Shown here: piece after piece, positions 36,028 to 63,608 of the stretch
How positions within the stretch are numbered: the stretch's first letter is position 1
How the letters are laid out: every line of letters begins with the position of its first letter
Assembly (NCBI GenBank): GCA_964568665.1
Contig: CAZMPY010000005.1
Location: 742 to 64,741 of the forward strand
From: an uncultured Thermoplasmata archaeon
GTDB taxonomy: Archaea; Thermoplasmatota; Thermoplasmata; UBA10834
DNA length: 64,000 bases
Direction of reading: 5' to 3'
Position numbers and translations under genes: made by a program
Notes under the pieces: model-generated
The model's database searches: none
Told to the model about the DNA's origin: nothing
What the model saw: the letters and a program-made list of their open reading frames with translations, nothing else

Positions 36028-36041
36028 GGTGCGGTAGCGTC

Positions 36042-36962: not shown

Positions 36963-37001
36963 TCTATCACCCACATTTCTACAGCCAGTATCCAACTCAC
37001 A

Positions 37002-37487: not shown

Positions 37488-37602
37488 TTTGCATCACTCG
37501 GCGGTTCTCGCCGATTGTGACAAGGCCGAGTAAGTACCAGCAAATTGGGGCATACATGTATTATAGTTTAAATACGGATGGCACATTCAGAGAAACGATG
37601 CC

Positions 37603-38262: not shown

Positions 38263-38689
38263 AGTGATCACGGGTATGGCGGGACACGCAGGGGCTCCGT
38301 ACCGGCATTCGATTGAAAACCACCATCTGGCTTTACCATTGAGTTGGCCCGGGTCGACCAACTCAGCTCATACGATCGAAAAGCCCCATACTGAGGTTCA
38401 GAATCACCCGAAGTGCAGCTCGAGGACGAGTGCGCCAATCGTTGACGAAAAAGAGAACGCAAGAGGTTCTTATCTCGGTACCTGAAACCCCGAATTGAAA
38501 AATAGCCAGACGTCTCGGCTCATGTCCAGCTCAACGCGCCACCTATGGCTTGGACATTGCTGGGCACGGAGAGAGCATATGACCAGGTCATTCTAGGCGC
38601 CCATCAAGCCGCTGCATGAGGCCAATGGGACGGTCTTCCTCTGTCAGTTTCCTCAATCCGTGCTCCACTTGCTTTGGCCATAGAGAGCA

Positions 38690-39640: not shown

Positions 39641-39653
39641 ATCATCACTTCCG

Positions 39654-40412: not shown

Positions 40413-40416
40413 ACGT

Positions 40417-43146: not shown

Positions 43147-43278
43147 CGGTCAGGGGAGGCGCTCGGATGATTTAAGCGTATTCGAGTGTTCCCTCAAGAA
43201 ACCGCAATGAGAACTGAATCAAGGAAAGAGAAGAAGGGTTTAGCTCGGTGCTAGAATCGCGAAATTGAAATTTGGCCA

Positions 43279-43872
43279 GTGTTCAAAATCCAAACCCGGC
43301 TCCCTGCACACAAAGGCGAGACCATTATCTTATGCCACGCGGTTCTCAGAGCCGTGGTAGACTCGATCGAGTACGAGGTCGAGAGGTCCGACAGGTCTCT
43401 GGAGATCCGCAGATACCCGAGCATGGTCCTCGCGACGGTGTACGGCCGCTCCGACTACGACGCCTTCAGCATATTGTTCGATTACATCTCAGGCGACAAC
43501 ACGCCCAGAAGCAAGATACCCATGACCGCCCCCGTGATATCCTCTGAGAAGATAGCCATGACCGTCCCTGTGATATCCGACGGCCGGTCCTTCTCGTTCG
43601 TGATGCCCTCGGGTCAAGGCGCGGACACGATCCCTGAGCCCCGGGATGCGAGGGTGAAACTCGAGGCGTTCCCCGCGAGGAGGATGGCAGTGGTCAGGTT
43701 CCGAGGCCGCGCGCGGGAGAAGGCCGTCAGGGAGAGGACCTCCGAACTCATATCGTACGTTGAGGGCCTGGGCCTGAAGGTCAAGGGAGAGCCGTCCCTG
43801 ATGAGGTACAACCCGCCCTTCACGCCGGGGTTCCTGAGAAGGAACGAGCTGGCGGTCGAGGTCGCACAGTAG
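43279..43872 (+). CDS. SOUL heme-binding family protein
   Basis: IEYEV..LEIRRYPSMVLATV, FSILFDYISGDN..IPMTAPV (twice), and a C-terminal YNPPFTPGFLRRNE block. The real start may be the GTG at 43354, because the 5' end of the ORF runs through the att remnant. Confidence 0.75.
   Translation: MFKIQTRLPAHKGETIILCHAVLRAVVDSIEYEVERSDRSLEIRRYPSMVLATVYGRSDYDAFSILFDYISGDNTPRSKIPMTAPVISSEKIAMTVPVISDGRSFSFVMPSGQGADTIPEPRDARVKLEAFPARRMAVVRFRGRAREKAVRERTSELISYVEGLGLKVKGEPSLMRYNPPFTPGFLRRNELAVEVAQ
43281..43310 (+). repeat. Degenerate copy of the tRNA-Leu 3' half (att remnant between island A and islet B)
   Basis: GTTCAAA(atccaaac)CCGGCTCCCTGCACA compared with tRNA GGTTCAAATCCGGCTCCCTGCACA. Confidence 0.75.
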
Positions 43873-45962: not shown

Positions 45963-45970
45963 ATAAAAGT

Positions 45971-46018
45971 CGGTTCCCTGCACATCTATATCCTGTGCCC
46001 TTCTCAATCCGCAACCTT
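45971..46018 (+). repeat. att copy (attL of island C1) overlapping the integrase 3' end
   Basis: CGGTTCCCTGCACATCTATATCCTGTGCCCTTCTCAATCCGCAACCTT is near-identical to 34887-34935. The last six integrase codons (QKVAD-stop) lie inside it. Confidence 0.8.
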
Positions 46019-47002
46019 CTGTGCAGAAGTCTTCGCGCGGTGAGCGGACTCGTACGCCTCGTCGAGGATCCGGAAGGCGTGGTCGGCCCGTATCCTCGCG
46101 TAGTAGAGCTCGGTCGTGCGTGTGGTCTTGTGCCTCAGCGCCCTAGAGACCGCGTCGGGGCGGCCGCCCCAGTCTATACACATCTGCCCGAATGTCGCCC
46201 GGAGGGTCTGGATCCGGAACCTGATCCCCGTCCACCTCTCGGCATCCTTCTTGACCTTGCCCCACATCCCGTCGGTCCAGTATTCCGCGGCGCCTTCCGT
46301 GATCTTCGGGACCAGGGCCTCGCACGACTCGACATCCTGCTCGGCCAGATATCGTTGCCTCGTCTCCAGGAACTCGATGACCGTCCCGCGCGCGGGGCGC
46401 AGGATCCGGGCGGGGGCAGCGACGGCCCATCTGCCCTCGCCCTTGGGGTGGGTGACGACGATGGTCCATGTGTCGACGCTCAGGTCCTCCAACCTCGCCA
46501 GGCGCAGTTCAGACCTCCTGAGCCCAGAATACGCGTACATCGCCACCATGAACCGCGCCATCGCGCCATGATAGCCCGGCATTTCCCTCAGCCTCGAGCG
46601 CAACTCCTCGACTCTCGATTCTGACATCACCCTGACCTCTGGAGGCACCTTCTTGGGGAAGCGCACGATGCGCATCTTCCTCATCTGGTCGATGATCCCG
46701 TTGTTCTCGAACCTGAGGAACCCATTGAGGTATTCGATGTAGTTCACCTGGGTCCCGTATGCAAGGCCAGTGCCGAGACGGGTCTTTCTCCTTCTCATCC
46801 ACTCCAAGAAGGCTGCGATGTCGGCCTCTGTCAGCTTCCTGGGGTCGGTCGTGCCGACCTTGCCGTCCCTCCTCAGCTCGAGGAAGGCGCCGCGTATGGA
46901 CCTGAAACCCCGTTCCATGACGTCCAGGGTTCTAGGTGAATAATAACTCGTCATCGCCCCGAGGTAGGTCTGCTGAAGTCGGATCCACGGATCTCTGCCC
47001 AC
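46004..47002 (-). CDS. int: Tyrosine-type site-specific integrase
   Basis: GLRRSELRLARLEDL (catalytic Arg region), LRATFG, and ALRHKTTRTTELYYARI (His-x-x-Arg and Tyr). Adjacent to the att site. Confidence 0.85.
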   Translation of the reverse strand: MGRDPWIRLQQTYLGAMTSYYSPRTLDVMERGFRSIRGAFLELRRDGKVGTTDPRKLTEADIAAFLEWMRRRKTRLGTGLAYGTQVNYIEYLNGFLRFENNGIIDQMRKMRIVRFPKKVPPEVRVMSESRVEELRSRLREMPGYHGAMARFMVAMYAYSGLRRSELRLARLEDLSVDTWTIVVTHPKGEGRWAVAAPARILRPARGTVIEFLETRQRYLAEQDVESCEALVPKITEGAAEYWTDGMWGKVKKDAERWTGIRFRIQTLRATFGQMCIDWGGRPDAVSRALRHKTTRTTELYYARIRADHAFRILDEAYESAHRAKTSAQKVAD

Positions 47003-48074: not shown

Positions 48075-49010
48075 CTAGGTGGACAGTATCTCCTGTCTTA
48101 GCGACTTGAGTTGGTTGTGTATCCGAACCGCCTCGACGTCGAAATCATCAGGAATCTTCTTCAACATCAATTTCTCTTCGGCGTTGGTCAGAACATGTTC
48201 ATCTGGGAACTCCATCTTCATGAGACTATTGCGATACTTGGCGTACAAGTCTAGCATATATTTCGTCTTCCTGACGATTGAATCTCGATACTTCTCAATG
48301 GTGAAATCAAACTTCCTCTCCATCATGTATATGTCGAGTATGTCACGAGGCTTGTACACAATCCTTGTCATCGCCGCCCTGCATTTCTCAGTGAATATCT
48401 CCCTCGAATCATAGCAAGGGAGGACGACTTCTCTGCAGTACTCGTCACATGGCTCTCTGAACACTGGCCTTAGACGCTCCAAGTCGAATCCGTCTACGTA
48501 GCTCTTCAGCGAAGTCTCTACAATAGGGAACTCTATCATGTCAACGAGATTCACCTGGACCTTGATCTTGACGGGGATCTCCAACACAACCGAGTTGTAT
48601 TTCAACCACAAGTCCAACATCTTGCCGCCACCGCGTACGTTCACGTCACCACCGTTAGCCAGGCCTTTTGACTTGTCTCCGGAAAATCCAAGTCCGAGAT
48701 TCAGCGAGATGTCTTTGAACTCCTTCAGATACCTGGAAATCTCGGCTGAGCACTGCTTTCCCCTGCCCGCCTTCCTGACCTGCTGCCAATTCGTATCCTG
48801 CCGTCTTGTGAAATCAACATCCTCGGAGAATCTGTAGTATCCTGTGTAGGCTTTGACCAGACAGGTGCCGCCCTTGAAGACAAGACAGTCATTGAGGAGC
48901 TTGTTCTGTGAGATGCTATGGAGGAGTCTGTGAAGGTGGTAGTCCTTCTCGATCACTTCTGTACTGACTGAACCACCGACCTTCCGCAGCCCACCAAAGA
49001 ACTCCTTCAT
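48075..49010 (-). CDS. abiEii: AbiEii/AbiGii-family nucleotidyltransferase toxin (type IV TA, DUF1814)
   Basis: EKDYHLHRLL...LVFKGGTCLVKAY...YRFSEDVDFT N-terminal signature. The start overlaps the upstream antitoxin stop (ATGA). Confidence 0.8.
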   Translation of the reverse strand: MKEFFGGLRKVGGSVSTEVIEKDYHLHRLLHSISQNKLLNDCLVFKGGTCLVKAYTGYYRFSEDVDFTRRQDTNWQQVRKAGRGKQCSAEISRYLKEFKDISLNLGLGFSGDKSKGLANGGDVNVRGGGKMLDLWLKYNSVVLEIPVKIKVQVNLVDMIEFPIVETSLKSYVDGFDLERLRPVFREPCDEYCREVVLPCYDSREIFTEKCRAAMTRIVYKPRDILDIYMMERKFDFTIEKYRDSIVRKTKYMLDLYAKYRNSLMKMEFPDEHVLTNAEEKLMLKKIPDDFDVEAVRIHNQLKSLRQEILST

Positions 49011-50373: not shown

Positions 50374-51975
50374 TCAGTCTTTGAACTTCAAGTCAAAGAG
50401 CTTCTTCAGGACCTTCTCAGTCACCGATCTGAAATCATTCATGTCATCGTCAGAGATTCCAGCCGAAGCTCTCTCGTGAATGAGCTTGCATCTCCGGTCA
50501 TGGTAGTGGGTCATCTTCTTCCAGTCTGTATTACTGATGCTCACGTACTTCTTCACTTCATTTACCACTTGATGGCGATGTGAGAAGATATTCAGCAATT
50601 CCTTATCAGAATAGTACTGCCCAGATTCATTGACAAGATAATCCTTGAAAGCAATCTCCAGAGTGCTATCGAGAATGATCAAGCATATCCGATTCTTCTC
50701 TTCAATATCCTTTCTGGAGATGAGATCGACTGCTATTATCGAAGAAAGGTGTCCTTTTGCCCATGGCTTGTTCGAGATCACATTCTTGTTTGCCTCTCGC
50801 AGGTGTTCTCCACGACTATGCTTTGATCTCGGAAGCTCTGCATAGTAGTCCATGTTCGCAAGCGGAAATGAAGTGATCACCTCATGCCTAATCGCGCCGG
50901 CATTGTACGCAAACACCTTATTCGGCCATTGACGTGATGTCCTGCGAGAAAGAGAAGTCCAGTACTTCACGTTCTCTATGAGGAAACTCTGCAATCCAAC
51001 GAACACGGGATGACTTGTATTGATTCCAGATTTGCTGCTGTTCCAAGGCATGGCAATTGCCGGGCCGTTGAGATGGACGAATATTCTTGCAAGCGAGAGA
51101 GCTTGGTGCGGAACACCAGCTTGCCCCTTGGCAAAACCCACTGATATGTCCTTCAAAGCCCGCGCGACGAGTCTCCCGTTACAGTACAAATACAACCCAT
51201 ATTCGACCGTGCTTGAAGACTGTGAAAGACCAGCAGTGACTTGCACTTTGACCGTGTCACCTCTTGTTGTCTGGAGACTACCCACTTGCGTAACGGGCTC
51301 GAAGTCGGGAGGATATGCCCAATTTTCCAGGTCGATCGGTCTGAGCTGAACTCCATTTACCTTCACAGTCAGCTGCTTGTCATCAAGAAACAGGGCATAG
51401 GTGGTCGATAGGTGTTCTTTCAGCTGCTCAATCACTCCCACATTCAGAGCCTTTCTCAAGCTCTTGAGTTCGAGAATCGTATGACCTTCGTCGATGTCGT
51501 CGGTCTCGTAGTACGGGAGGTACCAGTCGTCATTCTTCAACCAAGATTCTTCCACTTCGATCAGGAAGGTCATCTTGCTTCTTCTCGGCCTCGTGATAAT
51601 CCTGGCATCTTGAGACAGTGCGACGATAGCTCGCTTGGTACCCACCCCAAAGTACCCTATCGACTCCATCTTTTCGTCTATCTTCGTGTATCCTGGGGCC
51701 ACAAGAAGACTCAAGTCGTCTTCATCGACCCCCCCAGCGTTGTCCTCGAATCTGATCATCTGCTGTGTCGTATCCAAAGCTATGTCCACAGATAGCTGAC
51801 GGGATTTGCCCTGAATCTGCCATATATCCAAGACGTTGTCCATCAGCTCGCAAATCGCGCGGTTCAAATCATAGTCTGCGATTATGGATTGAAAAAGACG
51901 TTTTGCGGGCACGGCGTCGAGCAGTCCACGCTCCTTCTTCATAGAACTCGCGCTCCTATACCTCGCCAATGGCAA
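50374..51975 (-). CDS. GHKL-superfamily ATPase (HATPase_c_3 / MORC-like N-terminus) with a large uncharacterised C-terminal region
   Basis: N-box ICELMDNVLDIW, G1 box FEDNAGGVDEDDL, G2 box GYFGVGTKRAIVAL. The ATG at 51942 is an alternative start. Confidence 0.7.
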   Translation of the reverse strand: MPLARYRSASSMKKERGLLDAVPAKRLFQSIIADYDLNRAICELMDNVLDIWQIQGKSRQLSVDIALDTTQQMIRFEDNAGGVDEDDLSLLVAPGYTKIDEKMESIGYFGVGTKRAIVALSQDARIITRPRRSKMTFLIEVEESWLKNDDWYLPYYETDDIDEGHTILELKSLRKALNVGVIEQLKEHLSTTYALFLDDKQLTVKVNGVQLRPIDLENWAYPPDFEPVTQVGSLQTTRGDTVKVQVTAGLSQSSSTVEYGLYLYCNGRLVARALKDISVGFAKGQAGVPHQALSLARIFVHLNGPAIAMPWNSSKSGINTSHPVFVGLQSFLIENVKYWTSLSRRTSRQWPNKVFAYNAGAIRHEVITSFPLANMDYYAELPRSKHSRGEHLREANKNVISNKPWAKGHLSSIIAVDLISRKDIEEKNRICLIILDSTLEIAFKDYLVNESGQYYSDKELLNIFSHRHQVVNEVKKYVSISNTDWKKMTHYHDRRCKLIHERASAGISDDDMNDFRSVTEKVLKKLFDLKFKD

Positions 51976-52355: not shown

Positions 52356-52790
52356 GTGACAGAGCCCATAGACATTCTCCTCGAAATGGCTTGGAGGAGG
52401 TATGATGAGTCTTGCCAAGAGCGAAGGGATCTGGGTGTAGCAACCGGTGTAATCCTCGCTGTGGATGGTGTGCTGCTGGGAATATGCTTCCAAATCCCGG
52501 ACTTGTCCGGCTGGGTCTTGTTCGCGATTGCAGCGATTCTAATCTCAACCATATTCGCGGTCCTAACCTTTGCGGGGCAGAGATACAACGTGACCGACAC
52601 GATTGCGATATGGAGGGAACTAAGCACCGAAGCAAAGACTAAGGACGACTTTCAAGCTCGAATAATCTCTGCTATCTGTGCAATTGAAAAAGCGAACACG
52701 GAAAAGACTCAGCGTCTGTGGTGTCCTCTAGGTCTCTCAATAGCGGAGTTGACGAGCGCGCTCATCTTTCTCGCGCTATCTCTTCTCTAG
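52356..52790 (+). CDS. Hypothetical 3-TM membrane protein
   Basis: N-terminal amphipathic helix, two adjacent TM helices, a soluble helical insert and a C-terminal TM helix. Divergent from the GHKL ATPase gene. Confidence 0.5.
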   Translation: MTEPIDILLEMAWRRYDESCQERRDLGVATGVILAVDGVLLGICFQIPDLSGWVLFAIAAILISTIFAVLTFAGQRYNVTDTIAIWRELSTEAKTKDDFQARIISAICAIEKANTEKTQRLWCPLGLSIAELTSALIFLALSLL

Positions 52791-53061
52791 CTCAATGAGC
52801 CTCTTCTTCTTCTCTTCCATTCCTTTTACAATCTCCCTTCCAAGGGACGCCTTTGGCGCAGGAGGAGGAGGCTCGATTAGAACCTGAACCTTGGCTCTCT
52901 TCTCGTCCGATTTCTCATCAGACATTTTCATCCACGCTCTACTTTGACAATGCACACAGAGTATTAGAAATGTTCATTGAGGCTGCTGAAACAAGAGGCG
53001 TCATGCTGTACAGTGCATCGTAAGCGCCGAACGCCTTCTCGTCCGCATGCCTAGCCTGAGA

Positions 53062-53484
53062 TCAACGCATCTTCTCTAGCTTCTGCCCAGCTCGGAAATA
53101 CTCGGAGGTGTGCCACTCGTCCTTGTCCTGCAGGTCCGTGGCCATCAACCCTCTACCCAATCCGATGATGAACGGTTTGTGTTTCTTCTTGCCACGAGCA
53201 ACGAGCAGCTCTCCCAGTGCCCCATGATGAAGCCACCTGACCGTCCACCATAAATCCCTCGACTGGGACGAGCATGCCTGATATTGGTTGACGAAGTACC
53301 GTCCGATGATCTGGCCTGCCTTTTGGCCAGCCGGTTCTTCAAACATGCCTAGAAGCTTGTTCCCCTTCACCAATGGCACAACTATTTCTCGGTATCTGCG
53401 TTCGAGCCACCTCACCATCTTCACGATGTCTCTAGAGGTGTAGATTTCAAGGAACTCCGTTGCATCAACAACGTCATCGAACAT
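53062..53484 (-). CDS. Hypothetical protein
   Basis: Last gene of a co-directional three-gene cassette. No motif recognised. Confidence 0.45.
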   Translation of the reverse strand: MFDDVVDATEFLEIYTSRDIVKMVRWLERRYREIVVPLVKGNKLLGMFEEPAGQKAGQIIGRYFVNQYQACSSQSRDLWWTVRWLHHGALGELLVARGKKKHKPFIIGLGRGLMATDLQDKDEWHTSEYFRAGQKLEKMR

Positions 53485-53541
53485 AGGCCCGCTCTTTCAG
53501 ATCTTGGTACACGCGCATCCTCGCCCTGACAACGATTGACC

Positions 53542-54276
53542 TCAACTGGAGGGACCCGCCCCGGGATTGCATTCTCCGTCGTCTTGATCCAGCTTCTCTT
53601 TCGGTATTCTGCACTCCAGTTGATTTCTGTGATAAGCCTCGAGCTCCTCGCAAAGTCTCTTATCTCTGAGCTTGATTCCAAACGTCACTGAAGGCACTTT
53701 TACCTCCGGGGCCGCGAAGCTCAGGAGAACCTCGTTCTTGTCGACGAGGAACATTTCGATGGCGGGGGGTGACGGTTCCCCATGTCGATGCTGGTGGTAA
53801 TTGTCAAGACCCGAGTATTGACGGCGAATCTGCTCGAAGCGCTTCCTCCATTCCTCGGTGTCCCGATGAAAGATAACCCGAATGAATCTTGACTTAGGGC
53901 TGTTCGTGAGAAAGCTGACGACGCACTTGTCCCACCTATTCTCCGTCATCGGCTGAGGAAGGAATGAGTTTACTGTTCTTATCACATGAGGTCGTTCCTT
54001 GTCGAGCCCATCCAGCATTCGTTCGAATTCGTTGTAGATGTCCTCGTTACTCTTTATCATCCTGATTCGCTCTGGCCCCGAAGGGAGCAAGCGACCTACC
54101 AGAATCACCACAATCGAGGCAATCAGCGACGCCCCAATCGCCAAGACTACGGTGAAGGCTTCGCTGTAGTCACGGATCAGAAAAGCGACGGCGACAAGCA
54201 GTAGACCCAAGAACGTGGCTGCGACCAACGGCCAGAAACCGCGGCTCTCCCTAATGTCGTCTTCCTTCATCCCCAT
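53542..54276 (-). CDS. Hypothetical protein with two N-terminal TM helices and a cytoplasmic domain
   Basis: WPLVAATFLGLLLVAVAFLI and VVLAIGASLIASIVVILVG helices. 6 nt downstream of the preceding gene. Confidence 0.5.
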   Translation of the reverse strand: MGMKEDDIRESRGFWPLVAATFLGLLLVAVAFLIRDYSEAFTVVLAIGASLIASIVVILVGRLLPSGPERIRMIKSNEDIYNEFERMLDGLDKERPHVIRTVNSFLPQPMTENRWDKCVVSFLTNSPKSRFIRVIFHRDTEEWRKRFEQIRRQYSGLDNYHQHRHGEPSPPAIEMFLVDKNEVLLSFAAPEVKVPSVTFGIKLRDKRLCEELEAYHRNQLECRIPKEKLDQDDGECNPGAGPSS

Positions 54277-54282
54277 TCCTCC

Positions 54283-54771
54283 CTAAGTCCTCCTGTTTAT
54301 GAAGCACCAGCTCCCTACCCCACGGGCGAGGCTCTCTGCGCTCCAGATTGCGTTCCCGCATATGCTGCATGATCCCGTTCCTACGCGCTCCCCTCTCCCC
54401 TGAGCTTCCGCATAGCAAGGAGAATCCATCAATCGCCTTGCTGCTCGAAGATCACCCCTTAGAATCCTAGCCCCCGCTCCGTAGTTCGCGTCACCTGTCA
54501 CGACTCCTGCTGCATGGCCCAGCGGGTCGCCCTCCGCGCTGGGCTCCGTGTGAGCGTAGACTTCAACTCTGTTTCCAGTCCTTACTACCTGGACATGTAT
54601 CCATCGGTTTCCTAAATCGGGTCGGTCGCGCACGTAGGTTTCTATTTCCCCCTCCTTCTTGAATCCTGGGACTATTCGCGGTCGGTATCCCGCGACCTCC
54701 AGGCGCCTCTTCACATCCGGATATTCTTGAATGTCTGTCGTCACGGCCGGCGTCTTTCCCTCAACCACCAT
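54283..54771 (-). CDS. Hypothetical protein with a C-terminal Cys cluster
   Basis: C-terminal SCSICGNAIWSAESLARGVGSWC. First gene of the cassette. Confidence 0.45.
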   Translation of the reverse strand: MVVEGKTPAVTTDIQEYPDVKRRLEVAGYRPRIVPGFKKEGEIETYVRDRPDLGNRWIHVQVVRTGNRVEVYAHTEPSAEGDPLGHAAGVVTGDANYGAGARILRGDLRAARRLMDSPCYAEAQGRGERVGTGSCSICGNAIWSAESLARGVGSWCFINRRT

Positions 54772-55180: not shown

Positions 55181-55206
55181 AGCGTTCGCATCCTGTTCCC
55201 TGCACA
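55181..55206 (+). repeat. Degenerate tRNA-Leu 3'-half copy (attR-type boundary between islands C1 and C2)
   Basis: AGCGTTCGCATCCTGTTCCCTGCACA matches CCGGTTCAAATCCGGCTCCCTGCACA at 19 of 26 positions. That includes a 12-nt run identical to the 45973 copy (GTTCCCTGCACA). Confidence 0.6.
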
Positions 55207-55460: not shown

Positions 55461-55521
55461 TGGCCCTCATGTTAATAAAGGGCCATCATCATACTCCTAG
55501 GGAGTTGGGCGAGCCCAACTC
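55461..55521 (+). promoter_or_regulatory. Promoter/operator region of the five-gene operon
   Basis: TATA-like TTAATAAA (55472-55479) is embraced by the inverted repeat TGGCCCT/AGGGCCA (55461-55467 and 55479-55485). It is followed by the perfect inverted repeat GAGTTGGGC-GA-GCCCAACTC (55502-55521), 24 nt before the ATG. Confidence 0.45.
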
Positions 55522-55544: not shown

Positions 55545-56627
55545 ATGGCCAAAGAGCGGACAAACACCGAGCATTTGGTGCGCGCTGAGGAGAACGTGTA
55601 CCGCATGGAGGTGCCAATTGACGGCGTCCCTGAGTTAGTCGAACTAAGGGATGTTCCGATCGACGATATCCTCCTGGATGAGGAGAATCCCAGGATTGGA
55701 TACTGGCATGACAATATTGCGCGGTATGTTGAATCCACCAATCAGAAGGATCTTGAATTAGCCATCAGAGCAGGCGGAATCGAAGAATACAATAGACTGA
55801 AACGAAGCATTGAGGCGGGCGGCGGCGCAACCGAGCTGATTTGGCTCATGAGAAGAGGAGACGGATACGTGTGCATCGATGGAAACACGAGAGTCATGAT
55901 ATATCGCGATCTCCGGGACAAGTACGCAAAGAAAGAGTGTTTCAAGAAGATTAAGGCAAGAATCCTACCCGAAGGGACCGACGAGCGCGCAAGGAATTTC
56001 ATCCGCTTGATTGCCCACCTACGTGCACAGAATGACTGGCAGGCATATGAAAGAGCCAGAATGCTTTACATCTTGTGGGAAAAGAAGGGATACACCATCG
56101 AAGAACTGCTCAACACGACAAAACTCAAGTTGAACGATATCAAGAGATGGATCCTGGCATACAAGATGATGAACGACCAATTCCTTCCAGTCTACGGCAG
56201 CAAACCCGAAGCCCTCATGAAGTTCTCATATTTCGTGGAATACGAATCAAAGCGGATAAAGGACGGAATGAAACGGCATAGTCTTGAGGATAAGGATTTC
56301 TGCGATTGGGTCGGTAACGATGAGATTACCAGGGCGCAAGATGTTAGAGATCTCAAGAACATATTCGACAACGAAAGAGCCAGCGAGATCCTTGTCGAGG
56401 AGGGGTTCCAGGCAGCACGGGAGGAACTCAGAGTCTCTGTGCCAGCATATGGTTCAAGGCTGTTTGAGCATATCGAGAAATGCATCGAGGGGCTCAGAAG
56501 CATGCCAAGAGAGGAAGAAAGGAGCATCATCACAGGAGAGGAACCGAAGAAGAAAGAGGATATCCGACTTCTGCATAAGGAACTCTCTGGCCTCATGGAT
56601 TTGATCGAGAAATTCGATAAGGGGTAG
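55545..56627 (+). CDS. ParB/Srx-fold N-terminal domain protein (ParB-like nuclease/NTPase domain), paralog 1
   Basis: VPIDDILLDEENPRIGYW (the I..L...NPR box) and YVCIDGNTRVMIYRDL (equivalent to the ParB GxRR box), with a helical C-terminal region. Confidence 0.7.
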   Translation: MAKERTNTEHLVRAEENVYRMEVPIDGVPELVELRDVPIDDILLDEENPRIGYWHDNIARYVESTNQKDLELAIRAGGIEEYNRLKRSIEAGGGATELIWLMRRGDGYVCIDGNTRVMIYRDLRDKYAKKECFKKIKARILPEGTDERARNFIRLIAHLRAQNDWQAYERARMLYILWEKKGYTIEELLNTTKLKLNDIKRWILAYKMMNDQFLPVYGSKPEALMKFSYFVEYESKRIKDGMKRHSLEDKDFCDWVGNDEITRAQDVRDLKNIFDNERASEILVEEGFQAAREELRVSVPAYGSRLFEHIEKCIEGLRSMPREEERSIITGEEPKKKEDIRLLHKELSGLMDLIEKFDKG

Positions 56628-56632
56628 GAATA

Positions 56633-57064
56633 TTGCCCTCGAACGCCCATAAGATGCTAGTGGACCTAATCGCGAGGAAGATGCAAGATAAGGGATATCT
56701 TCCAGTGGCATTTGACGGAAAGTATCTTGTCATTGAGGACGAAGTCATACACATTCCTCCGAGAATCGGAAGACATCGACCTGATGTGATCGGAATCAAA
56801 CCCTCGACGAAACGACTTTGCCTAGGAGAGGCAAAAACTCTCGATGATCTGAGAACTCAAAGGACTCGAGAACAATTCACTGACTATTCGAGGGTCATCG
56901 GACAGACATCTGGTGAGATCGCCGAGTTGATTATTGGCACTACAAGTGAGGCAGTAGACAGTCTGCATCAGATTCTCGCCGGGCTTGGAATGTGCGACAA
57001 CCCCAATGTCACGTATGTCATATTGCCTGAGGAGTTGGTGGATAATGGGCAAGGTAACCTTTGA
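56633..57064 (+). CDS. Small PD-(D/E)xK nuclease-fold protein (predicted)
   Basis: HRPDVIGI (Asp) and LCLGEAKT (Glu-x-Lys), spaced as in restriction-endonuclease-like folds. TTG start 5 nt after the previous stop; the ATG at 56654 is an alternative. Confidence 0.5.
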   Translation: MPSNAHKMLVDLIARKMQDKGYLPVAFDGKYLVIEDEVIHIPPRIGRHRPDVIGIKPSTKRLCLGEAKTLDDLRTQRTREQFTDYSRVIGQTSGEIAELIIGTTSEAVDSLHQILAGLGMCDNPNVTYVILPEELVDNGQGNL

Positions 57065-58484
57065 CTTCTCTCCAAGAACAAAACCCCTCCCCCACCAAAT
57101 TGACGCTATATCATACGTGGCTACTCATCAGAATGTGCCCCTCTTCGATGAGCAGGGACTCGGAAAAAGCAAGATTATAATCGACGCTCTCTGCCGGAAT
57201 TTGAGGGACCGAGAGATAGATGGGGCGATAATCGTCTGCAAGAAGACCCTGCTTTACATGTGGAGAAACGAAATCAAGAAACACTCGAATCTCTTGGCTA
57301 TTGTCCTGGATGGCGCAAAGAGACAAAGAGGTCGAAGTCTCATTACTTTTGGCCAATTCTACATAGTAAATTATGAGACCCTCATTCGTGAAATTGAGTT
57401 GATTGGCCTTTTGTTGAAGCACAGACGCTTCGCTCTGGTGCTGGACGAATCTCAACGAATCAAGAATCCTGAGTCAGAAGCTGCAAAAGCATTGCTGTCT
57501 CTCAGAGAGTCATCCTCAAAGCGTGTGATAATCACCGGCACTCCAATCGCAAACCGACCCGAAGATCTCTGGGCACAGTTCTACTTTCTAGACGGAGGTG
57601 CAACGCTCGGGAAAGACTTCGCATCATTCAAGAAACGGTTCGAAGTCTCTCTCAAGGGTGTACAGGACATGAAACCATTTGAAGACGAACTAAGGGAATT
57701 GAGGAAGCGAATTGGCGAAGTGGCCATACGTAGAACCAAAGAAGTCCTTGAACTCCCAGAGAAAGTCTATGAGAATGTTCCAGTCGAGATGGCCACAAAG
57801 CAGAAACGCATGTATGAGACAGCGCGCAAGGAGATGTACGTTGAGATCAGGAATTCTCTTGGGGAACCTGTGGAACAACAAATCGAGAACTATCTTGTGA
57901 AACTCCTACGACTAACTCAGATTGCGAGTAACCCCGCTCTCTTGGATCCGACCTATGACGAGATACCCTGTAAGTTCAGAGTACTAGATCAGTTGATCAA
58001 GAATATGGTAGGCGATCGAGAAAAGGTAATTGTATGGACAAGCTTCACAGGCAATGTAAGATCACTGAGAAAGAGATACGAGGAGTATGGATCACAGATG
58101 CTCTTCGGAGAGATCCCAATTGTCGAAAGGAATCGGACGGTTGACCGATTCATGAAAGAGGAGAACTGCAGGGTTCTGATTGCCAACCCTGCAGCGGCAA
58201 AAGAGGGGCTGACTCTAACCTCGGCAAACAACGCGATATACCTCGACAGGAACTTCAAAATGGATGACTACCTTCAATCGCAAGATCGAATTCACAGAAT
58301 CGGACAAGAGAGAAAGTGCAGAATTGTCAAACTCCAAGCCATCGGAACAGTCGATGAATACACTGACGAGATTCTAGAGAAGAAGGAACTCATTGCGAAG
58401 TACGCAATGGGAGATTCAGATCACATCGAAGGCAGGCGTGACTATCTCTCGATAGATGATCTCCTGAGGATTATCGGAGGTTAG
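57045..58484 (+). CDS. SNF2-family helicase/translocase
   Basis: LPHQIDAISYV (Q motif/Ia), DEQGLGKS (motif I), LVLDESQRIKN (motif II), ITGTPIANRPEDLWAQFYFL (motif III), LTLTSANNAIYLDRNF (motif V), QSQDRIHRIGQ (motif VI). GAGGAG upstream of the ATG. 20-nt overlap with the preceding gene. Confidence 0.9.
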   Translation: MGKVTFDFSPRTKPLPHQIDAISYVATHQNVPLFDEQGLGKSKIIIDALCRNLRDREIDGAIIVCKKTLLYMWRNEIKKHSNLLAIVLDGAKRQRGRSLITFGQFYIVNYETLIREIELIGLLLKHRRFALVLDESQRIKNPESEAAKALLSLRESSSKRVIITGTPIANRPEDLWAQFYFLDGGATLGKDFASFKKRFEVSLKGVQDMKPFEDELRELRKRIGEVAIRRTKEVLELPEKVYENVPVEMATKQKRMYETARKEMYVEIRNSLGEPVEQQIENYLVKLLRLTQIASNPALLDPTYDEIPCKFRVLDQLIKNMVGDREKVIVWTSFTGNVRSLRKRYEEYGSQMLFGEIPIVERNRTVDRFMKEENCRVLIANPAAAKEGLTLTSANNAIYLDRNFKMDDYLQSQDRIHRIGQERKCRIVKLQAIGTVDEYTDEILEKKELIAKYAMGDSDHIEGRRDYLSIDDLLRIIGG

Positions 58485-58487
58485 AAC

Positions 58488-59501
58488 TTGACTGATAAGA
58501 AAGAGGCATACTCAATTGACGGACGTGAGATCGGATACGAATTCAAAATGGTGGACATCAATGATCTCAGGTTCTACGAGGACAATCCCAGAATCGCAAC
58601 GATCATCGGAGAGAAGAAGGATGCCGCCACACAAGAGACCATTGATGAGTGTCTCTGGGATAGAGATGAAACACATAAATGGAAACGCAGAATAGAGACA
58701 GATGGAGGGCTCATCCATCCACTCATTGTGTACGACGGGCAGGTGCTTGAAGGGAACACGAGACTGTGCTGCTATCGACACCTGTACCAGGAGACAAAGA
58801 ACGACTTGTGGAGAACAGTGAAATGCAACGTCATCAAGGATAGGCTGACCAAGGACGACATATACAGACTGCTATGTACCGAGCACATTGAGGGAAAGAT
58901 CCCCTGGGATCCGTATGAAAAGGCAAATTTCTACCGGAAAATGAGAGAGGACGACGGAAAGACTCTTGATGAAATCAAGAGTATCGTTGGAGAGAGCACA
59001 ACTTCGATCAACAACAAGATACGCGCTTTCAAACTAATGGTTGAGAACGGAGTCGTGAACAAAGAGAAATACAGCCACTTTGAGCAACTTGTACTAAACG
59101 GGGACATACGCGACATCAAAGATAACCATGATCCAGATATAGAGGACAAAGTCATCAAGTTGATTAAGAAGGGCACTTGCAAGACTGCCCAAGACATCAG
59201 GAAAATCGGCACAATATACAAACACAAGACCGCGAGGAAGAGAGTCTTCGATGACCTTGAGGACGTTGAGCAAGTCTGGACGGAAGTCAAAGCGAAAGCC
59301 CCGCTGACGGATTCACCGCTAATGAAAGAGATTGAGGATATCATCGTCAGAATCCGAGAATTGTCTCGCGAGGACAGGAACCTGCTCGCAGGCAACGGAC
59401 GAGATCGGTCCAAAGTGAAGGATGTCACCGAGGAATTGATTGCCTTGTGCCATGAAATGGACATCAAGATACATGTTCCAAAAAGCATCCGCAGAGAGTG
59501 A
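58488..59501 (+). CDS. ParB/Srx-fold N-terminal domain protein, paralog 2
   Basis: VDINDLRFYEDNPRI, GGLIHPLIVYDGQVLEGNTRLCCYRHL. TTG start 3 nt after the SNF2 stop; the ATG at 58548 is an alternative. Confidence 0.7.
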   Translation: MTDKKEAYSIDGREIGYEFKMVDINDLRFYEDNPRIATIIGEKKDAATQETIDECLWDRDETHKWKRRIETDGGLIHPLIVYDGQVLEGNTRLCCYRHLYQETKNDLWRTVKCNVIKDRLTKDDIYRLLCTEHIEGKIPWDPYEKANFYRKMREDDGKTLDEIKSIVGESTTSINNKIRAFKLMVENGVVNKEKYSHFEQLVLNGDIRDIKDNHDPDIEDKVIKLIKKGTCKTAQDIRKIGTIYKHKTARKRVFDDLEDVEQVWTEVKAKAPLTDSPLMKEIEDIIVRIRELSREDRNLLAGNGRDRSKVKDVTEELIALCHEMDIKIHVPKSIRRE

Positions 59502-59504
59502 CCA

Positions 59505-60770
59505 ATGAGAGTCCTGTTGGTTGTACCTGACTTCCCTATTCCAAAGAAAAGGAAAATTCATCACGATTTTGTCCCAATTGGCCTTCTGAAGATTGGCACG
59601 TATCTTCGAGACTCGAAGGGTTGTGATGTCGAGCTTGTGTTTGGCAAGAAGACGCCACGCACGAAGCCCGACGAGATCTGGATTACATCCCTATTCACCT
59701 ATTGGTCAAGATATGTTCGCGAAGCCGCAGAGTTCTATCACGATAGATACCCCAAGGCCCGAGTCATCATTGGAGGCATTTATGCAAGTCTAATGCCGGA
59801 GCATACAAGGCATTCAACGGGCCACGAGGCATACGTTGGATTGCACAATGATGCTGAGAAATGGGTGCGAAATCACGGAGTCGACTACTCGATCCTTGGT
59901 CAACAAATTGACTTTCAAATCCTTCATGGTATGCGAGGATGTTTCCGGAGATGCAGGTTCTGCGGAACCTGGAAGATCGAACCTGAGGAGACATTCGATC
60001 CGGCCATTCACGAGCAGATCACCAAGAATCATGTGGTCTTCTATGACAATAACTTTCTGCGTAATCCTAGAATCAAGGAGACTCTTGAAGCTCTATCATC
60101 GATCCGCGTCAACAGAAAACCCGTTCGATTTGAATCGCAGAGCGGATTCGATGGCAGAATACTCAACCCGGAACTGGCGAGACTTCTCAAGAAGGCGCGC
60201 TTCATCAATCCTCGAATTGCATGGGATAATTCCATCCTGGACGAGAAGAAAATTGAGGAGCAGATCAGGATGCTGAAAGATGCTGGGTATAAATCAAAGG
60301 ATATCTATGTATTCATGCTGTACAACTGGGAACATGATTTCGGAACCCTCGAGACAAAGAGGATCAAGTGCTGGAAATGGAAGGTGCAGATCGCGGACTG
60401 CAGATTCAGACCGCTAGATCAGGTATTCGACGAATTCGACTCAAGGAAAGCTCAGAGCTCAGCCGAGTACTACATTCATCCGGATTGGACAGACACTGAA
60501 GTCAAGAAGTTTCGTGCCAATGTCCGAAAACATAACATATGTGTGAGGCATGGTTTTCGGTTCTACTCCAAGTCTCTGGAACTGATGCGACTGTCCAAGA
60601 AACGAACAACTGAGCTCAAGCAAGAGTCAAGAGCTCGAATCAAGGAGGCACTTCCAGACGCTTGGTTTCCGGGTGAGCACCATCCGCCCGCAGGAATTCA
60701 GAAAGGCATAGAGAAATCCTCGAAGCAGGATGAGAGTGAGAATGCGCCTAATGCAGGCGGGACCGCCTGA
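59505..60770 (+). CDS. Radical SAM protein with an N-terminal Rossmann-like (cobalamin-binding-type) domain
   Basis: GMRGCFRRCRFCGTW gives the CxxxCxxC cluster motif. The N-terminal VLLVVPDFP...VPIGLLKIGTYLRDSKGCDVELV resembles the B12-binding domain of class B radical SAM enzymes. ATG 3 nt after the previous stop. Confidence 0.75.
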   Translation: MRVLLVVPDFPIPKKRKIHHDFVPIGLLKIGTYLRDSKGCDVELVFGKKTPRTKPDEIWITSLFTYWSRYVREAAEFYHDRYPKARVIIGGIYASLMPEHTRHSTGHEAYVGLHNDAEKWVRNHGVDYSILGQQIDFQILHGMRGCFRRCRFCGTWKIEPEETFDPAIHEQITKNHVVFYDNNFLRNPRIKETLEALSSIRVNRKPVRFESQSGFDGRILNPELARLLKKARFINPRIAWDNSILDEKKIEEQIRMLKDAGYKSKDIYVFMLYNWEHDFGTLETKRIKCWKWKVQIADCRFRPLDQVFDEFDSRKAQSSAEYYIHPDWTDTEVKKFRANVRKHNICVRHGFRFYSKSLELMRLSKKRTTELKQESRARIKEALPDAWFPGEHHPPAGIQKGIEKSSKQDESENAPNAGGTA

Positions 60771-61250: not shown

Positions 61251-63134
61251 CTAGGCTTGATGATGCCCCTCGACTCTTGATTTTGCAAACCGTTCCGTGT
61301 CCTTGTCCATGAAGTGGACGTAGCAGCCCTTCATCCCCCTGGTCAGGAGCACGCGATAAGTGTTCTTGACTAGTTCTGCGAATCGGTCCTTCGACCTCTT
61401 CACCACGGAGTCATGGCTGTGCTCGCGCTGGCCCTCCCACTTCTGCGCGTCGAGGTCGTATACCAGGTCGTTGCCGAAGATGACTCCGGCATAATCGAAT
61501 TCGAATCCCTGGGCGGTGTAGATGCAACCGACCTGACGGATGCCGTTGGGGTCCTGGGCCCATGTCACCGCCTTCGGGATGTCCTTCGCTAGCCTCCTCG
61601 CCTCCGGCCTGGCGTTCCACGGCCTCTTATACCCGCCTATGACCACGTCATCCACGAGCGTCCCGTCCGGCTTCGGGTCCGACCACGGCCAGCAGAAGCC
61701 AGCCGTCATCCTACCCGTGTGCCCCTCGGCCACCCTCTCAAATATTGCCTCCTCGACCGCCTCTGGGCTCTTCATGATCCTGAAGTCGAACTCCTCCCTC
61801 TGACTCCAGAGCGCGTTCGCCGTCCTCTCGATACCGAGGGTGTTGTTCACCCAGCCCACGAACGCATCCGACCCGGCGCACCTGAACTGCGTCTCGAGCT
61901 CGTACTCGTAGACGCTGCACCCGAGCCTGCTCGCGCACTCCCTGATGTATTTTACGGAGCCGATCTCCCCCGGCCTCACCACCTGGTGGTCGTCGATGAA
62001 GAACACGCTCACCTTCGCGGCACGCATCAGCTCGTCTATCTGGGGGACCGTGGACCTCTTCTCCTTCGCCGTGAACCTGTTGCTGCTGTTCTCCCGTATC
62101 CTGTGCGCCTCGTCCGCCAGGAGCACGTCGATAGAGTTGTAGTCCGCCTCCGCGTAGCTGTTGAAGTACTTGAACTGGATCCCGCCCCTCGTCCCGATGA
62201 CCTTCCTGAGGGTCTCCGTGAACGCCCTCGAGCCCGTGGCGTACTGCGCGTTGTATCCCTTGAGCAGGAGGTCGGCCATCAGGTTGATCGCTATGACGGA
62301 CTTCCCCGTGCCCGGCCCGCCCTTGACGATCATGACAGACTTCTTTTTGTCGTGGAAGCCGCCCTTGGCGCAGGCGAAGACCCTGTCATAGACCACGAGC
62401 TGGTCGTCCAGGAGTATGTACTCGGGCTTGCCCTTGATCACGCTGCCTACGTGGTCCATCAGCTTCTTGCTAGGGCGGTACTTGCTCTCCTCTATCCTCT
62501 GAAGGGTCTCGAGCCCCTGCCCCTCGCTCAGCCATGAGGTGAGGTAACCCTCGAGGAGGTTCACGTCGTTCATGGTGTACAGGGGGTTCCTCTCGACCAC
62601 CGCCCTGAACTTCGCCGAGAGGATGGCGTCGTCCGCGACGGGGCTGTAGTTGTGGAGGTACGTGCAAGCGTTGAGCACGACGGGGTCGGAGCCTTCGTAG
62701 AAGGCCGTATGGGTGTCTTCGAGGTAGCTCCTGTACTGGCCGACCTGCACGGAAGGGTGCAGCACCTCCCTCTCGGAGCCGCCCACCCATGTGAGAACCT
62801 CGTTCTCTCCCTCGGCAGGGGAGCACTTGTCCCATTGCTTGAGCTCGATGATGACCGCGTTGTCCTTCCGCAACTCGTCGCGGCCGCATATGAGGCAGTC
62901 GAGCCTCTTCGATGTGAGGGGAAGCTGGTATTCCACCATGACGCCGTGGTCCATGAGATTGGCGTGCTGGAGGACCATGGACGCCGCTCTGAGGGAGTTC
63001 CTCCACGAGCCGATCTCCCCGGTGGAAGGATTGTGACCGTATTGCTCGAAGAAAGACGATTTGAGCTTCTCGGCGATCTGGTTCTGGTAGGTGTCCTCGA
63101 CGAACTGCTTGGAGGAGCCGGAGTAGAGCCTCAA
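61251..63134 (-). CDS. DUF2075-type SF1 helicase-like ATPase
   Basis: N-terminal F..D.....I...L...F........GEIGSWRNSL...VMVEYQLPLTSKRLDCLICG pattern. Walker A GGPGTGKS, Walker B LLADEAHRI, and C-terminal YTAQGFEFDYAGVIFG. The TTG at 63134 lies 1 nt after the MazG stop. The ORF-track start at 63422 runs through the mazG gene. Confidence 0.8.
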   Translation of the reverse strand: MRLYSGSSKQFVEDTYQNQIAEKLKSSFFEQYGHNPSTGEIGSWRNSLRAASMVLQHANLMDHGVMVEYQLPLTSKRLDCLICGRDELRKDNAVIIELKQWDKCSPAEGENEVLTWVGGSEREVLHPSVQVGQYRSYLEDTHTAFYEGSDPVVLNACTYLHNYSPVADDAILSAKFRAVVERNPLYTMNDVNLLEGYLTSWLSEGQGLETLQRIEESKYRPSKKLMDHVGSVIKGKPEYILLDDQLVVYDRVFACAKGGFHDKKKSVMIVKGGPGTGKSVIAINLMADLLLKGYNAQYATGSRAFTETLRKVIGTRGGIQFKYFNSYAEADYNSIDVLLADEAHRIRENSSNRFTAKEKRSTVPQIDELMRAAKVSVFFIDDHQVVRPGEIGSVKYIRECASRLGCSVYEYELETQFRCAGSDAFVGWVNNTLGIERTANALWSQREEFDFRIMKSPEAVEEAIFERVAEGHTGRMTAGFCWPWSDPKPDGTLVDDVVIGGYKRPWNARPEARRLAKDIPKAVTWAQDPNGIRQVGCIYTAQGFEFDYAGVIFGNDLVYDLDAQKWEGQREHSHDSVVKRSKDRFAELVKNTYRVLLTRGMKGCYVHFMDKDTERFAKSRVEGHHQA

Positions 63135-63135
63135 C

Positions 63136-63534
63136 CTAATCGTCTCCGTTCCTATCAGACGGTTTCGCGCGGACCGAACGCACCTCGTCCCAGTTCTCTG
63201 CCTTGGCGACCTTCGCGACTGGATACTTGCTCTTGTTCTTGCGAATCTTGTCGAGGAGCGCTTCCGACAAGTCGATGTCAAGGGTGTTGGCCATGCATGC
63301 ACTGTAGATGACCACATCCGCGATTTCTTCGCCGATGCGCGCTCTGATCTCCTTGCCCAGTGCTTCGCCTTCTGGCGGATCGGGTTTCCATTGGAAGAGT
63401 TCGAGGAGTTCCGCAGACTCAATAGCTATCGAAATCGCGATGTCCTTGGGTTTGTGGTACTTCCTCCAATTCCTTTCAGACACATAACCGTCAACAAGCC
63501 GCTGGAAATCCGCAATGCCGAGTTCATTCTTCAT
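63136..63534 (-). CDS. MazG-family nucleotide pyrophosphohydrolase
   Basis: ESAELLELFQW and EEIADVVIYSACMANTLDIDL (EExxE/D metal motifs) with C-terminal KNKSKYP. The ATG at 63534 is preferred; 63600 is possible. Confidence 0.8.
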   Translation of the reverse strand: MKNELGIADFQRLVDGYVSERNWRKYHKPKDIAISIAIESAELLELFQWKPDPPEGEALGKEIRARIGEEIADVVIYSACMANTLDIDLSEALLDKIRKNKSKYPVAKVAKAENWDEVRSVRAKPSDRNGDD

Positions 63535-63608
63535 ATCTATGGCCCCGCTGTGTCCGTCTCGTGCGGAATCACCTTGCGTCAGATTAAGCTTTACAGACAT
63601 AGGATGCC

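Follow-up and report, generated by a model that had tools for sequence, protein, structure and literature searches.

A 64,000-nucleotide (nt) stretch of DNA from an uncultured Thermoplasmata archaeon (positions 742 to 64,741 of contig CAZMPY010000005.1, GenBank assembly GCA_964568665.1; referred to below as the window) carries a cassette of five genes, here called A to E. They encode, in order, a ParB-like protein, a small predicted nuclease, a SNF2-type ATPase, a second ParB-like protein and a predicted radical S-adenosylmethionine (radical-SAM) enzyme. These genes form a self-contained, horizontally mobile and strictly conserved unit, and the family to which E belongs is a hub, being also the terminal gene of at least three other defence-type cores. 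We propose, tentatively and with a confidence that falls somewhat short of even, that the cassette is a self-contained mobile defence system of the modification-plus-restriction type, in which E marks self DNA. The cassette itself is unnamed, although the kind of system to which it would belong, the multi-gene modification-restriction defence cassette, is already known.

A conserved five-gene unit

Conservation of the cassette was examined by two independent searches, one starting from E in one-genome-per-species GTDB contigs and the other starting from A in JGI metagenome contigs. The first found 189 relatives of E, and showed the order A-B-C-D-E in five GTDB genomes, bacterial and archaeal (a member of the Actinomycetota, the Asgard archaeon Atabeyarchaeum deiterrae, a member of the Ignavibacteriaceae, a member of the Saccharibacteria and an unclassified bacterium). 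The second found 225 relatives of A, and each of the 30 metagenome loci with at least 4.3 kb of sequence after A holds the complete set of five, with the canonical order kept in 29; the shorter contigs contain only prefixes of the cassette (A, AB, ABC or ABCD). Complete cassettes number 42 in all. Beyond near-duplicate contigs they share no recurrent flanking gene family, and no methyltransferase recurs beside them. An A-B-C-D cluster without a radical-SAM gene was not seen in any locus. An order shared by 42 loci is far beyond chance, and because it recurs while the flanks are unrelated, the five genes are to be regarded as a single mobile unit. An initial annotation of this DNA, made from the sequence, had supposed that the genes work as one unit, and their co-occurrence in 30 of 30 metagenome loci and in the five GTDB genomes bears this out.

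A variant of the cassette is present on five IMG/VR contigs (L198, L200, L202, L208 and L238), where A-B-C-D are accompanied by a divergent long paralog of E. The open reading frames (ORFs) of this paralog have 543-651 residues and are 26-28% identical to E; they keep the catalytic signature and have no cysteine-rich C-terminal part. A GHKL ATPase gene adjoins the long paralog in these variant cassettes.

In the window, the cassette consists of five co-directional ORFs on the + strand of the six-frame ORF list, together spanning 55545-60770. At 5.2 kb it is the most compact version of the E-bearing cassettes. Gene A (55545..56627, 360 aa) is followed after 5 nt by gene B (56633..57064, 143 aa, with a TTG start), gene C (57045..58484, 479 aa) overlaps B by 20 nt, and gaps of 3 nt separate C from gene D (58488..59501, 337 aa) and D from gene E (59505..60770, 421 aa). 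The start of gene C is an ATG within a longer ORF, 56985-58484. This layout, and the motifs that the initial annotation had picked out by eye, are all present in the ORF list and in the translations of A to E. Publicly available gene predictions for this contig (JGI 3300036982, 289.6 kb) agree for four of the five genes, and begin gene B at Met8, giving a protein of 136 aa. Because P2 and H6, which lie upstream of Met8, are conserved in homologs (as an N-terminal MPSxxH), the TTG at 56633 is the better start; both residues are invariant in six copies of the cassette, and H6 is at least 90% conserved in 30 sequences. Small B genes have likely been truncated by automated calls in many databases.

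The cassette genes have a G+C content of 0.47-0.49, against 0.61-0.66 for the genes of the host. One host protein exceeds the curated cut-off of the RecJ_archaeal model, which marks the host as an archaeon; a haloarchaeal host was rejected, as the host proteins are not acidic. Within the cassette, C and E are basic, with isoelectric points of 9.0 and 9.4 respectively, which we count in favour of a modification-restriction function. An AT-rich TTAATAAAGGG at 55472-55482, some 65 nt before the start codon (ATG) of gene A, could be an archaeal TATA box for the operon.

The radical-SAM family in other defence-type cores

The neighbours of E were clustered and annotated in 83 non-redundant loci found with E. 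About three-quarters of these loci are defence-type cassettes, and in these E is terminal and co-directional with the genes that precede it. In the type represented by most loci (about 31) the core consists of a GHKL (HATPase_c_3) ATPase and a PP_RS20740-family protein of about 330 aa, followed by E. A second type (about 20 loci) has PbeA (E-value 8.5e-233), PbeC (7e-188) and dnd_assoc_4/PbeD, which is DndE-like, again followed by E. The third (7 to 9 loci) has DrmA (4.9e-95), DrmB, DrmC and a DrmE_C-containing protein (1e-13 to 1e-15) ahead of E, and the fourth (6 loci) is the type found in the window, ParB-nuclease-SNF2-ParB followed by E. There is also a minor fifth type, in which a HAS-barrel (HerA-like) ATPase is joined to E. 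The PP_RS20740-like partner of the first type, which is encoded directly upstream of E (loci L004-L061), matches its NCBIfam model at 3.6e-15, below the cut-off, and contains a near-invariant (I)YNLDF motif; a profile search of the PDB found no relative of it among solved structures.

Two of these cores belong to systems whose partners are known. PbeABCD acts together with DndCDEA phosphorothioation, and its many solitary copies have been suggested to pair with other modifications (PMC6459918); the system has also been re-annotated (PMC10853773). In the DISARM-like loci found with E, neither the operon nor the checked flanks contain a methylase. Class 2 DISARM, in work by Ofir et al. in 2018, is said to comprise DrmE-DrmA-DrmB-DrmC together with the cytosine methylase DrmMII. 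Pbe and DISARM thus normally pair with a DNA-modifying module, so that E in these loci occupies the slot of the modification enzyme.

A neighbour-joining tree was built from 114 E sequences. The cassette types interleave in it, a pattern that fits one enzyme module having been swapped among the cores. The family is widespread, with members in many bacterial and archaeal phyla, and profile searches show it to be a bounded radical-SAM clade. It contains 2,728 homolog clusters at 90% identity, the best 120 of which are all at least 49% identical, and the E profile finds 2,578 of 1.84 billion representatives at an E-value of 1e-3 or below, and 212 at 1e-30 or below.

It remains to consider what kind of enzyme E is. 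In Pfam, E matches Radical_SAM (9.6e-6, 26.3 bits against a cut-off of 29.5) and B12-binding (5.9e-6, 26.6 bits against 32.1), both just under the cut-offs, and its sole NCBIfam match is BchE at 0.0011. The cysteine signature C146-x3-C150-x2-C153 (CFRRCRFC) is invariant in 25 aligned homologs, as are many other positions. A profile search of the PDB with the sequence of E gave nothing useful. The AlphaFold model (predicted local distance difference test score, pLDDT, of 86.1) was more informative in Foldseek, where the best match is AprD4 (1.9e-12, template-modelling score 0.60), followed by MtaB/MiaB, TsrM and TokK, at only 10-15% identity. These radical-SAM matches span E-values of 1.9e-12 to 2.4e-7, and all have an N-terminal Rossmann or flavodoxin-like domain. 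A fold search of BFVD returned only generic 'COG1032/B12-binding-like' phage proteins. E is accordingly modelled as a radical-SAM enzyme in which a Rossmann (B12-binding-like) domain at the N terminus is followed by a barrel, which carries the cysteine signature, and by a C-terminal part of about 100 aa. The last of these is specific to the subfamily and has three conserved cysteines, C289, C299 and C346. We considered an auxiliary iron-sulfur cluster as a universal feature of the family and rejected it: the three extra cysteines are confined to the E subfamily, being absent from the phage relatives described below and from the long paralog.

The initial annotation had likened the N-terminal domain to the cobalamin-binding module of class B enzymes. 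The CxxxCxxC motif and the fold are both found, and cobalamin dependence is perhaps unlikely. The fold matches do include the cobalamin enzymes TsrM and TokK, but the B12-binding match is below its cut-off, and the B12-like domain of AprD4, the best match, binds no cobalamin. Homologs of E also occur in genomes of Saccharibacteria and DPANN, groups that are generally without cobalamin synthesis, which makes a weak argument against B12 dependence.

These generic database matches are the one point in favour of regarding E as an ordinary metabolic radical-SAM enzyme, such as a lipid or cofactor methylase, that happens to lie next to the other genes. Such an accident can be regarded as refuted, its probability being close to nil. 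The gene order is kept in 42 loci of both domains with unrelated flanks, the clade of E is a bounded one, and most of its loci are defence-type cassettes in which E takes the terminal position.

Two minor arrangements were also seen among the loci found with E. Two loci of the HAS-barrel type (L016, 7093-11191, and L030, 1055-5133) encode proteins of 389 aa and 570 aa, the latter with a weak HAS-barrel (HerA-like) match, together with the radical-SAM protein; in L016 the cassette is placed behind type I HsdM/HsdS genes. In a locus from Thorarchaeota (L010, 9980-12639) there are two tandem radical-SAM paralogs (5e-142 and 3e-110 to E), with none of the usual partner cassettes.

The partner proteins and a possible mechanism

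Genes A and D both carry the motifs expected of the ParB/Srx superfamily. The translation of A has an N-terminal domain with NPR (in LDEENPR, box I) and DGNTR (in IDGNTR, box II), followed by a helix-turn-helix (HTH) and a helical C-terminal part, and that of D, also a ParB/Srx-plus-HTH protein, has NPR, EGNTR (in LEGNTR) and EHIxGK. In libraries of single profiles, however, the ParB matches of both are weak (E-values 0.003-0.03). A matches PADLOC PD-Lambda-5_A at 1.7e-4, and D has colinear weak matches, to ddrB-ParB and TIGR03764 on residues 11-113 and to HTH_ParB and TIGR00180 on residues 141-184. Profile searches of the PDB gave only marginal matches to ParB, Noc and SbnI. With a larger profile for D the PDB match disappeared, and just one of 33 D homologs matches a ParB model of Pfam. 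One D homolog is named 'ParB N-terminal domain-containing protein' by NCBI, and in a HMMER alignment A is colinear with Helicobacter pylori Spo0J (4umk).

Because these single-profile matches are weak, the placement was settled only by profile-profile comparison (hhalign) with a true ParB alignment, made from seven annotated plasmid ParB/KorB proteins. Against this reference A scores 93.4% (E-value 2.4e-7, 192 columns) and D scores 91.2% (9.8e-7). In both, NPR aligns with box I, (D/E)GNTR with the GERR of box II, and AHLRG (in A) or EHIxGK (in D) with the ENLQR of box III, and an HTH comes after. A and D align with each other over their full length (100%, 9.5e-42). By these profiles they are full-length paralogs within the ParB/Srx superfamily, in agreement with the initial annotation, which had read them as paralogous proteins with a ParB/Srx-type N-terminal domain. 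The alignments also show that the residues of partition ParB CTPases, GERRxRA in box II and ENLQR in box III, are not kept in A or D. A canonical partition ParB CTPase clamp was therefore rejected for A and D, the signature residues being absent and no ParA-like gene being conserved beside the 42 cassettes.

Gene B has no family match in Pfam, PADLOC, NCBIfam or any other sequence-profile search, and it nevertheless belongs to a well-defined family of 220 homolog clusters, all of 132-159 aa. Residues P50-D51 and G65-E66-A67-K68 are invariant in 29 homologs. The AlphaFold model (pLDDT 85.6) has an order of secondary structure that fits the alpha-beta-beta-beta-alpha-beta core, and in a Foldseek search of the PDB the top matches are all PD-(D/E)xK proteins, although with modest E-values. 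The best is BstEII (2.9e-3, probability 1.00); the others include MunI, CdiA-CT, YaeQ, SdaI, Card1/Can2, Mus81 and Shedu. B is thus predicted to be a minimal PD-(D/E)xK nuclease with D51, E66 and K68 as catalytic residues. The PD...GEAK signature that had been noticed by eye in this 143-aa protein, seen in full as RPD...GEAK, accords with this model.

Gene C matches SNF2-rel_dom (2.4e-34, 119.2 bits against a cut-off of 24.9) and Helicase_C (2.8e-13, 50.5 bits against 23.5) in Pfam, and its translation contains DEQGLGKS, DESQ and QSQDRIHRIGQ, so that motifs I, II and VI are intact. The complete SNF2 core read from the sequence is thereby confirmed by scores well above the Pfam cut-offs. Its best PADLOC matches are to ZorD (2.6e-56), DpdE (3.3e-38) and DrmD (5.8e-21), and cover only the helicase portions of those larger proteins; SCO1167 helicase is also matched in NCBIfam, and these library matches are far under the family cut-offs. 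C is a bare SNF2 ATPase core.

We suggest the following scheme. D, the ParB-like protein whose gene directly precedes that of E, would bring the radical-SAM enzyme to DNA, and E would place a covalent mark on the DNA of the host itself. The other ParB-like protein, A, would bind or load on DNA in the restriction arm, where the SNF2 motor C would translocate and the small PD-(D/E)xK protein B would cut DNA that is unmarked. Modification plus restriction had been put forward in the initial annotation as a working hypothesis. Because E fills the slot of the modification enzyme in the DISARM-like and Pbe cassettes, that idea is now more specific and stronger; as to the mechanism, we infer the substrate of E to be DNA, and not a nucleotide or a protein, and the same is true of its chemistry and of the division of labour among A to D. 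The fold matches of E are compatible with C-methylation (TsrM, TokK), with methylthiolation or sulfur insertion (MiaB/MtaB, LipA) and with dehydration (AprD4).

A bolder form of this proposal, which we regard as possible and hold more loosely, is that E proteins constitute a novel class of enzymes that modify DNA, and that their covalent mark on double-stranded DNA identifies self to four or more unrelated restriction cores: ParB-SNF2-nuclease, the DISARM-like DrmABCE, PbeABCD, and the GHKL ATPase with its PP_RS20740-like partner. Such a mark could arise by C-methylation, by the thiolation or methylthiolation of a base, or through an alteration of the sugar. The distant relatives of E in phages would then be used as an anti-restriction mark. 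To our knowledge, multi-gene systems that distinguish self from non-self use three DNA marks: methylation, phosphorothioation and 7-deazaguanine. If E does mark DNA, a new modification chemistry would stand beside these as a radical-based epigenetic mark, and radical-SAM enzymology would gain a new reaction with a polymer as substrate. It would also account for the solitary PbeABCD modules and for the methylase-less DISARM-like operons. The ParB-SNF2 cassette, being compact and having no other conserved gene beside it, makes a practical test construct. The cassette occurs mostly in uncultured anaerobes, which probably explains why screens for phage defence in Escherichia coli and Bacillus have missed it.

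Several points weigh against a DNA mark. The identity among E proteins is about 45-50% or more across both domains of life and all cassette types, and such conservation is more typical of an enzyme with a universal small substrate than of a sequence-specific DNA modifier. E has no recognisable DNA-binding or target-recognition domain; for an enzyme so highly conserved, specificity would have to come from a variable partner encoded upstream. Its best structural match, AprD4, is a sugar diol dehydratase. The roles given to A and D are a guess from gene order. Among the other cores, the PP_RS20740-like partner may be a cryptic methyltransferase, and the GHKL partner is called 'restriction-like' solely from its ATPase domain. 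Finally, the interleaving of cassette types comes from a simple neighbour-joining tree without support values.

Because E lacks a recognition domain and is so conserved everywhere, some weight has to be given to a defence system in which E acts instead on a free nucleotide or other small molecule, in a viperin-like or AprD4-type reaction, making for instance a chain terminator or the precursor of a modified base. We think this unlikely, while giving it more credit than the alternatives discussed below. The strength of the AprD4 match and the keeping of the catalytic signature in the phage relatives would both suit it, and phage DNA hypermodification pathways are reported to use radical-SAM steps on modified nucleotides (PMC8989533). 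Viperins, on the other hand, stand alone, and E almost never does so, being joined to SNF2, DrmA, PbeC/DndD-like ATPase or GHKL cores. Those cores already carry nuclease effectors, and what they do not have is a modification enzyme. No cassette contains a transglycosylase (DpdA-like) or polymerase-type gene by which a modified base might be inserted, and E has no viperin match in NCBIfam or PADLOC.

The same feature of the cores bears on a further alternative, that E is a radical effector or regulator in defence, which damages or cross-links invader DNA or modifies a partner protein, and leaves no mark on self. There is a precedent in spore photoproduct lyase, a radical-SAM enzyme that acts directly on DNA, and the three extra cysteines specific to the E subfamily also speak for it. 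PbeABCD is reported to stop viruses from replicating although no cleavage of DNA could be detected (PMC6459918), so that there would be a place for an effector that is not a nuclease. Every E-bearing core already encodes a nuclease, however (B, DrmC, or the HKD domain of PbeA), and it is the modification module that is missing; moreover, a relative that damages DNA would hardly be retained by phages alongside their methyltransferases. We consider this improbable.

The phage relatives deserve a fuller description. IMG/VR contains only three close relatives of E and more than 300 distant ones, at 23-33% identity. E matches phrog_9298 ('radical SAM domain protein') at 9.7e-30, and the relatives of that family have the N-terminal domain and the barrel signature in common with E (C146, C150 and C153 included), without the cysteine-bearing C-terminal part. 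DNA methyltransferases, some of them fused to ParB domains, are among the neighbours in 31 of 80 phage loci, adjacent SNF2 helicases in 15 and cytosine-5 methylases in 10; terminases are also found, and bona fide ParB-like genes lie directly upstream of the E relatives. The association of ParB-like, SNF2 and radical-SAM genes thus appears, from these gene neighbourhoods, to be an old one that recurs in settings of DNA modification.

This association raises the question of whether the module serves the mobile element itself, by anti-restriction modification of its DNA or by maintenance or partition, rather than defending the host. Besides the phage neighbourhoods, the variant cassette lies on IMG/VR contigs, the copy in the window occupies an integration hotspot at tRNA-Leu, together with an integrase and attachment-site (att) remnants, and ParB proteins are the classical partition proteins. 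It is worth setting against this that no ParA or other partition ATPase, replication gene or other conserved flank accompanies the 42 cassettes, and that E has no match in 72,556 plasmid records (PLSDB) and just two weak matches in 50,697 phage genomes (a GenBank set). The box II and box III residues of partition ParB CTPases are not kept, a dedicated PD-(D/E)xK nuclease would be unexpected in a partition system, and the cores to which close homologs of E are linked, DISARM-like and Pbe, serve to defend the host. It is therefore rather unlikely that the module works for the mobile element, and modification plus restriction in defence of the host is the reading that we prefer.

Known systems and genomic surroundings

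No family model for A, B, D or E exists in Pfam, NCBIfam 20 (June 2026) or PADLOC 2.0. When the five proteins were run against PADLOC 2.0, C gave generic SNF2 matches, A and D gave weak ones, and B and E gave none. Full-text searches of open-access literature turned up Ophion (radical SAM, PHP and PRTase), HXS, viperins and Dnd/Pbe, and no description of the E family or of the cassette. Within these libraries and texts, the view of the initial annotation that the combination fits no named system therefore still stands. It had also named Dpd as the closest analogy; here the result differs, as DISARM and Dnd/Pbe are closer. By analogy, the general design of the cassette would be that of a motor, a nuclease and a modifier, as in DISARM, Dnd-Pbe and Dpd.

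DISARM is likewise a multi-gene cassette of a SNF2/helicase motor, a nuclease and a DNA-modifying enzyme that is found in defence islands. In class 1 DISARM, the SNF2 protein DrmD and the methylase DrmMI accompany DrmABC. The E family ends true DrmA-DrmB-DrmC-DrmE-like operons that lack a methylase, and C resembles DrmD in its SNF2 core. The cassette in the window, by contrast, has no match to DrmA, DrmB (DUF1998), DrmC (PLD) or DrmM, and has instead a PD-(D/E)xK nuclease, two ParB-like proteins, and a radical-SAM enzyme as putative modifier in place of a methyltransferase. It was rejected as a DISARM system, as only C gives DrmD matches and these cover the SNF2 core only.

Dnd/PbeABCD, which belongs with the CxC ABC-ATPase plus DndE systems of Aravind and co-workers, resembles the proposed system in having a modification module that works with a non-canonical restriction module, and the loci in which PbeA-PbeC-PbeD are joined directly to E fit the published suggestion about solitary Pbe (PMC6459918). 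The Dnd modification genes are accompanied by DndB, a member of the ParB superfamily (PMC10853773), but A and D have no DndB or DGQHR-family match in NCBIfam or PADLOC. The window contains no DndA, DndC, DndD, DndE, Pbe or sulfur-mobilising gene in the cassette, and an assignment to Dnd, Ssp or PbeABCD was rejected, since none of the five proteins matches a component of these.

Dpd comprises the transglycosylase DpdA, the ParB-like DpdB and the SNF2-like helicases DpdE and DpdJ, and places 7-deazaguanine in DNA; the pathway to its modification precursor includes a radical-SAM enzyme, QueE. The cassette shares with it a ParB-like protein and SNF2-like helicase, and differs in having no DpdA/TGT-like protein, DpdC, DpdD or further Dpd component, and five genes against about 11. 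Neither A nor D matches the DpdB model at an E-value of 0.1 or below, and E belongs to no QueE family of NCBIfam. The only Dpd matches are those of DpdE models to the SNF2 core of C, and Dpd too was rejected.

Zorya was rejected in the same way: the ZorD match of C covers the helicase part only, reaches 84 bits in NCBIfam against a cut-off of 1500, and is accompanied by no ZorA, ZorB or ZorC match. BREX, Druantia and Wadjet were rejected too, since in PADLOC the five proteins gave a weak BrxH match on the helicase C-lobe of C (8e-15) and no PglZ, BrxC, Dru or Jet match. Prokaryotic viperins (pVips) are also radical-SAM enzymes of antiviral defence, but they are stand-alone NTP dehydratases, whereas E has an N-terminal Rossmann domain and sits in operons with DNA motors and nucleases; with this difference in architecture and no match to viperin models, E was not assigned to them. 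The phrog_9298 modules of phages are similar in having a ParB-like gene directly upstream of the radical-SAM gene, and a SNF2 helicase. They differ in their low identity to E, in having no B-like nuclease and no C-terminal cysteines, and in lying beside terminases and methyltransferases.

The surroundings of the cassette in the window are, by their gene content, a defence island. A tRNA-Leu(CAG) region lies at 34814-34938, with the tRNA 3' end at 34881-34900. Repeats of this 3' end are found at 43291-43310 (95%), 45965-45984 (80%) and 55187-55206 (80%), the last being a 20-nt copy (16 of 20 identical) about 340 nt upstream of gene A. A 29-nt repeat (97%) is present just after the tRNA, at 34910-34938, and again at 45993-46021. 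Such att-like repeats suggest that at least two or three elements have integrated one after another at a single tRNA gene. A tyrosine integrase gene (46004-47002, - strand) comes directly after an att-like repeat, and beyond it are genes for an AbiEii-type nucleotidyltransferase toxin (48075-49010, -) and a 533-aa GHKL (HATPase_c_3) ATPase (50374-51975, -), the latter 3.5 kb upstream of the cassette. This GHKL gene was considered as a possible equivalent of the partner in the GHKL-type cassettes, and was rejected since the two are not significantly related (best E-value 2.6e-4).

Directly downstream of the cassette is a Schlafen-group-3/DUF2075-type helicase gene (61251-63422, -; Pfam 9.6e-89), which is paired with a MazG-like gene (63136-63600, -). 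The same pair adjoins the cassette in two metagenome loci (L144 and L145), and the two genes may constitute a defence module of their own that moves along with the cassette. The initial annotation had placed the cassette in an AT-richer island, after an att remnant and beside defence-type genes, and the G+C content, the repeat at 55187-55206 and these neighbours all agree with that description.

Some other features of the region should be added. A catalase HPII-like gene (44127-45650) lies within the segment at 43.3-46.0 kb. The interval 52356-54771, between the GHKL gene and the att remnant, holds one ORF on the + strand (144 aa) and three on the - strand (140, 244 and 162 aa), none of them with a Pfam match; membrane helices seem to be present at the N terminus of the 244-aa protein. 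Low GC (0.50-0.57) is also seen in a second stretch, from 36000 to 43200, where five co-directional ORFs on the - strand (38690-43146) lie between the tRNA-Leu gene and the first att-like repeat.

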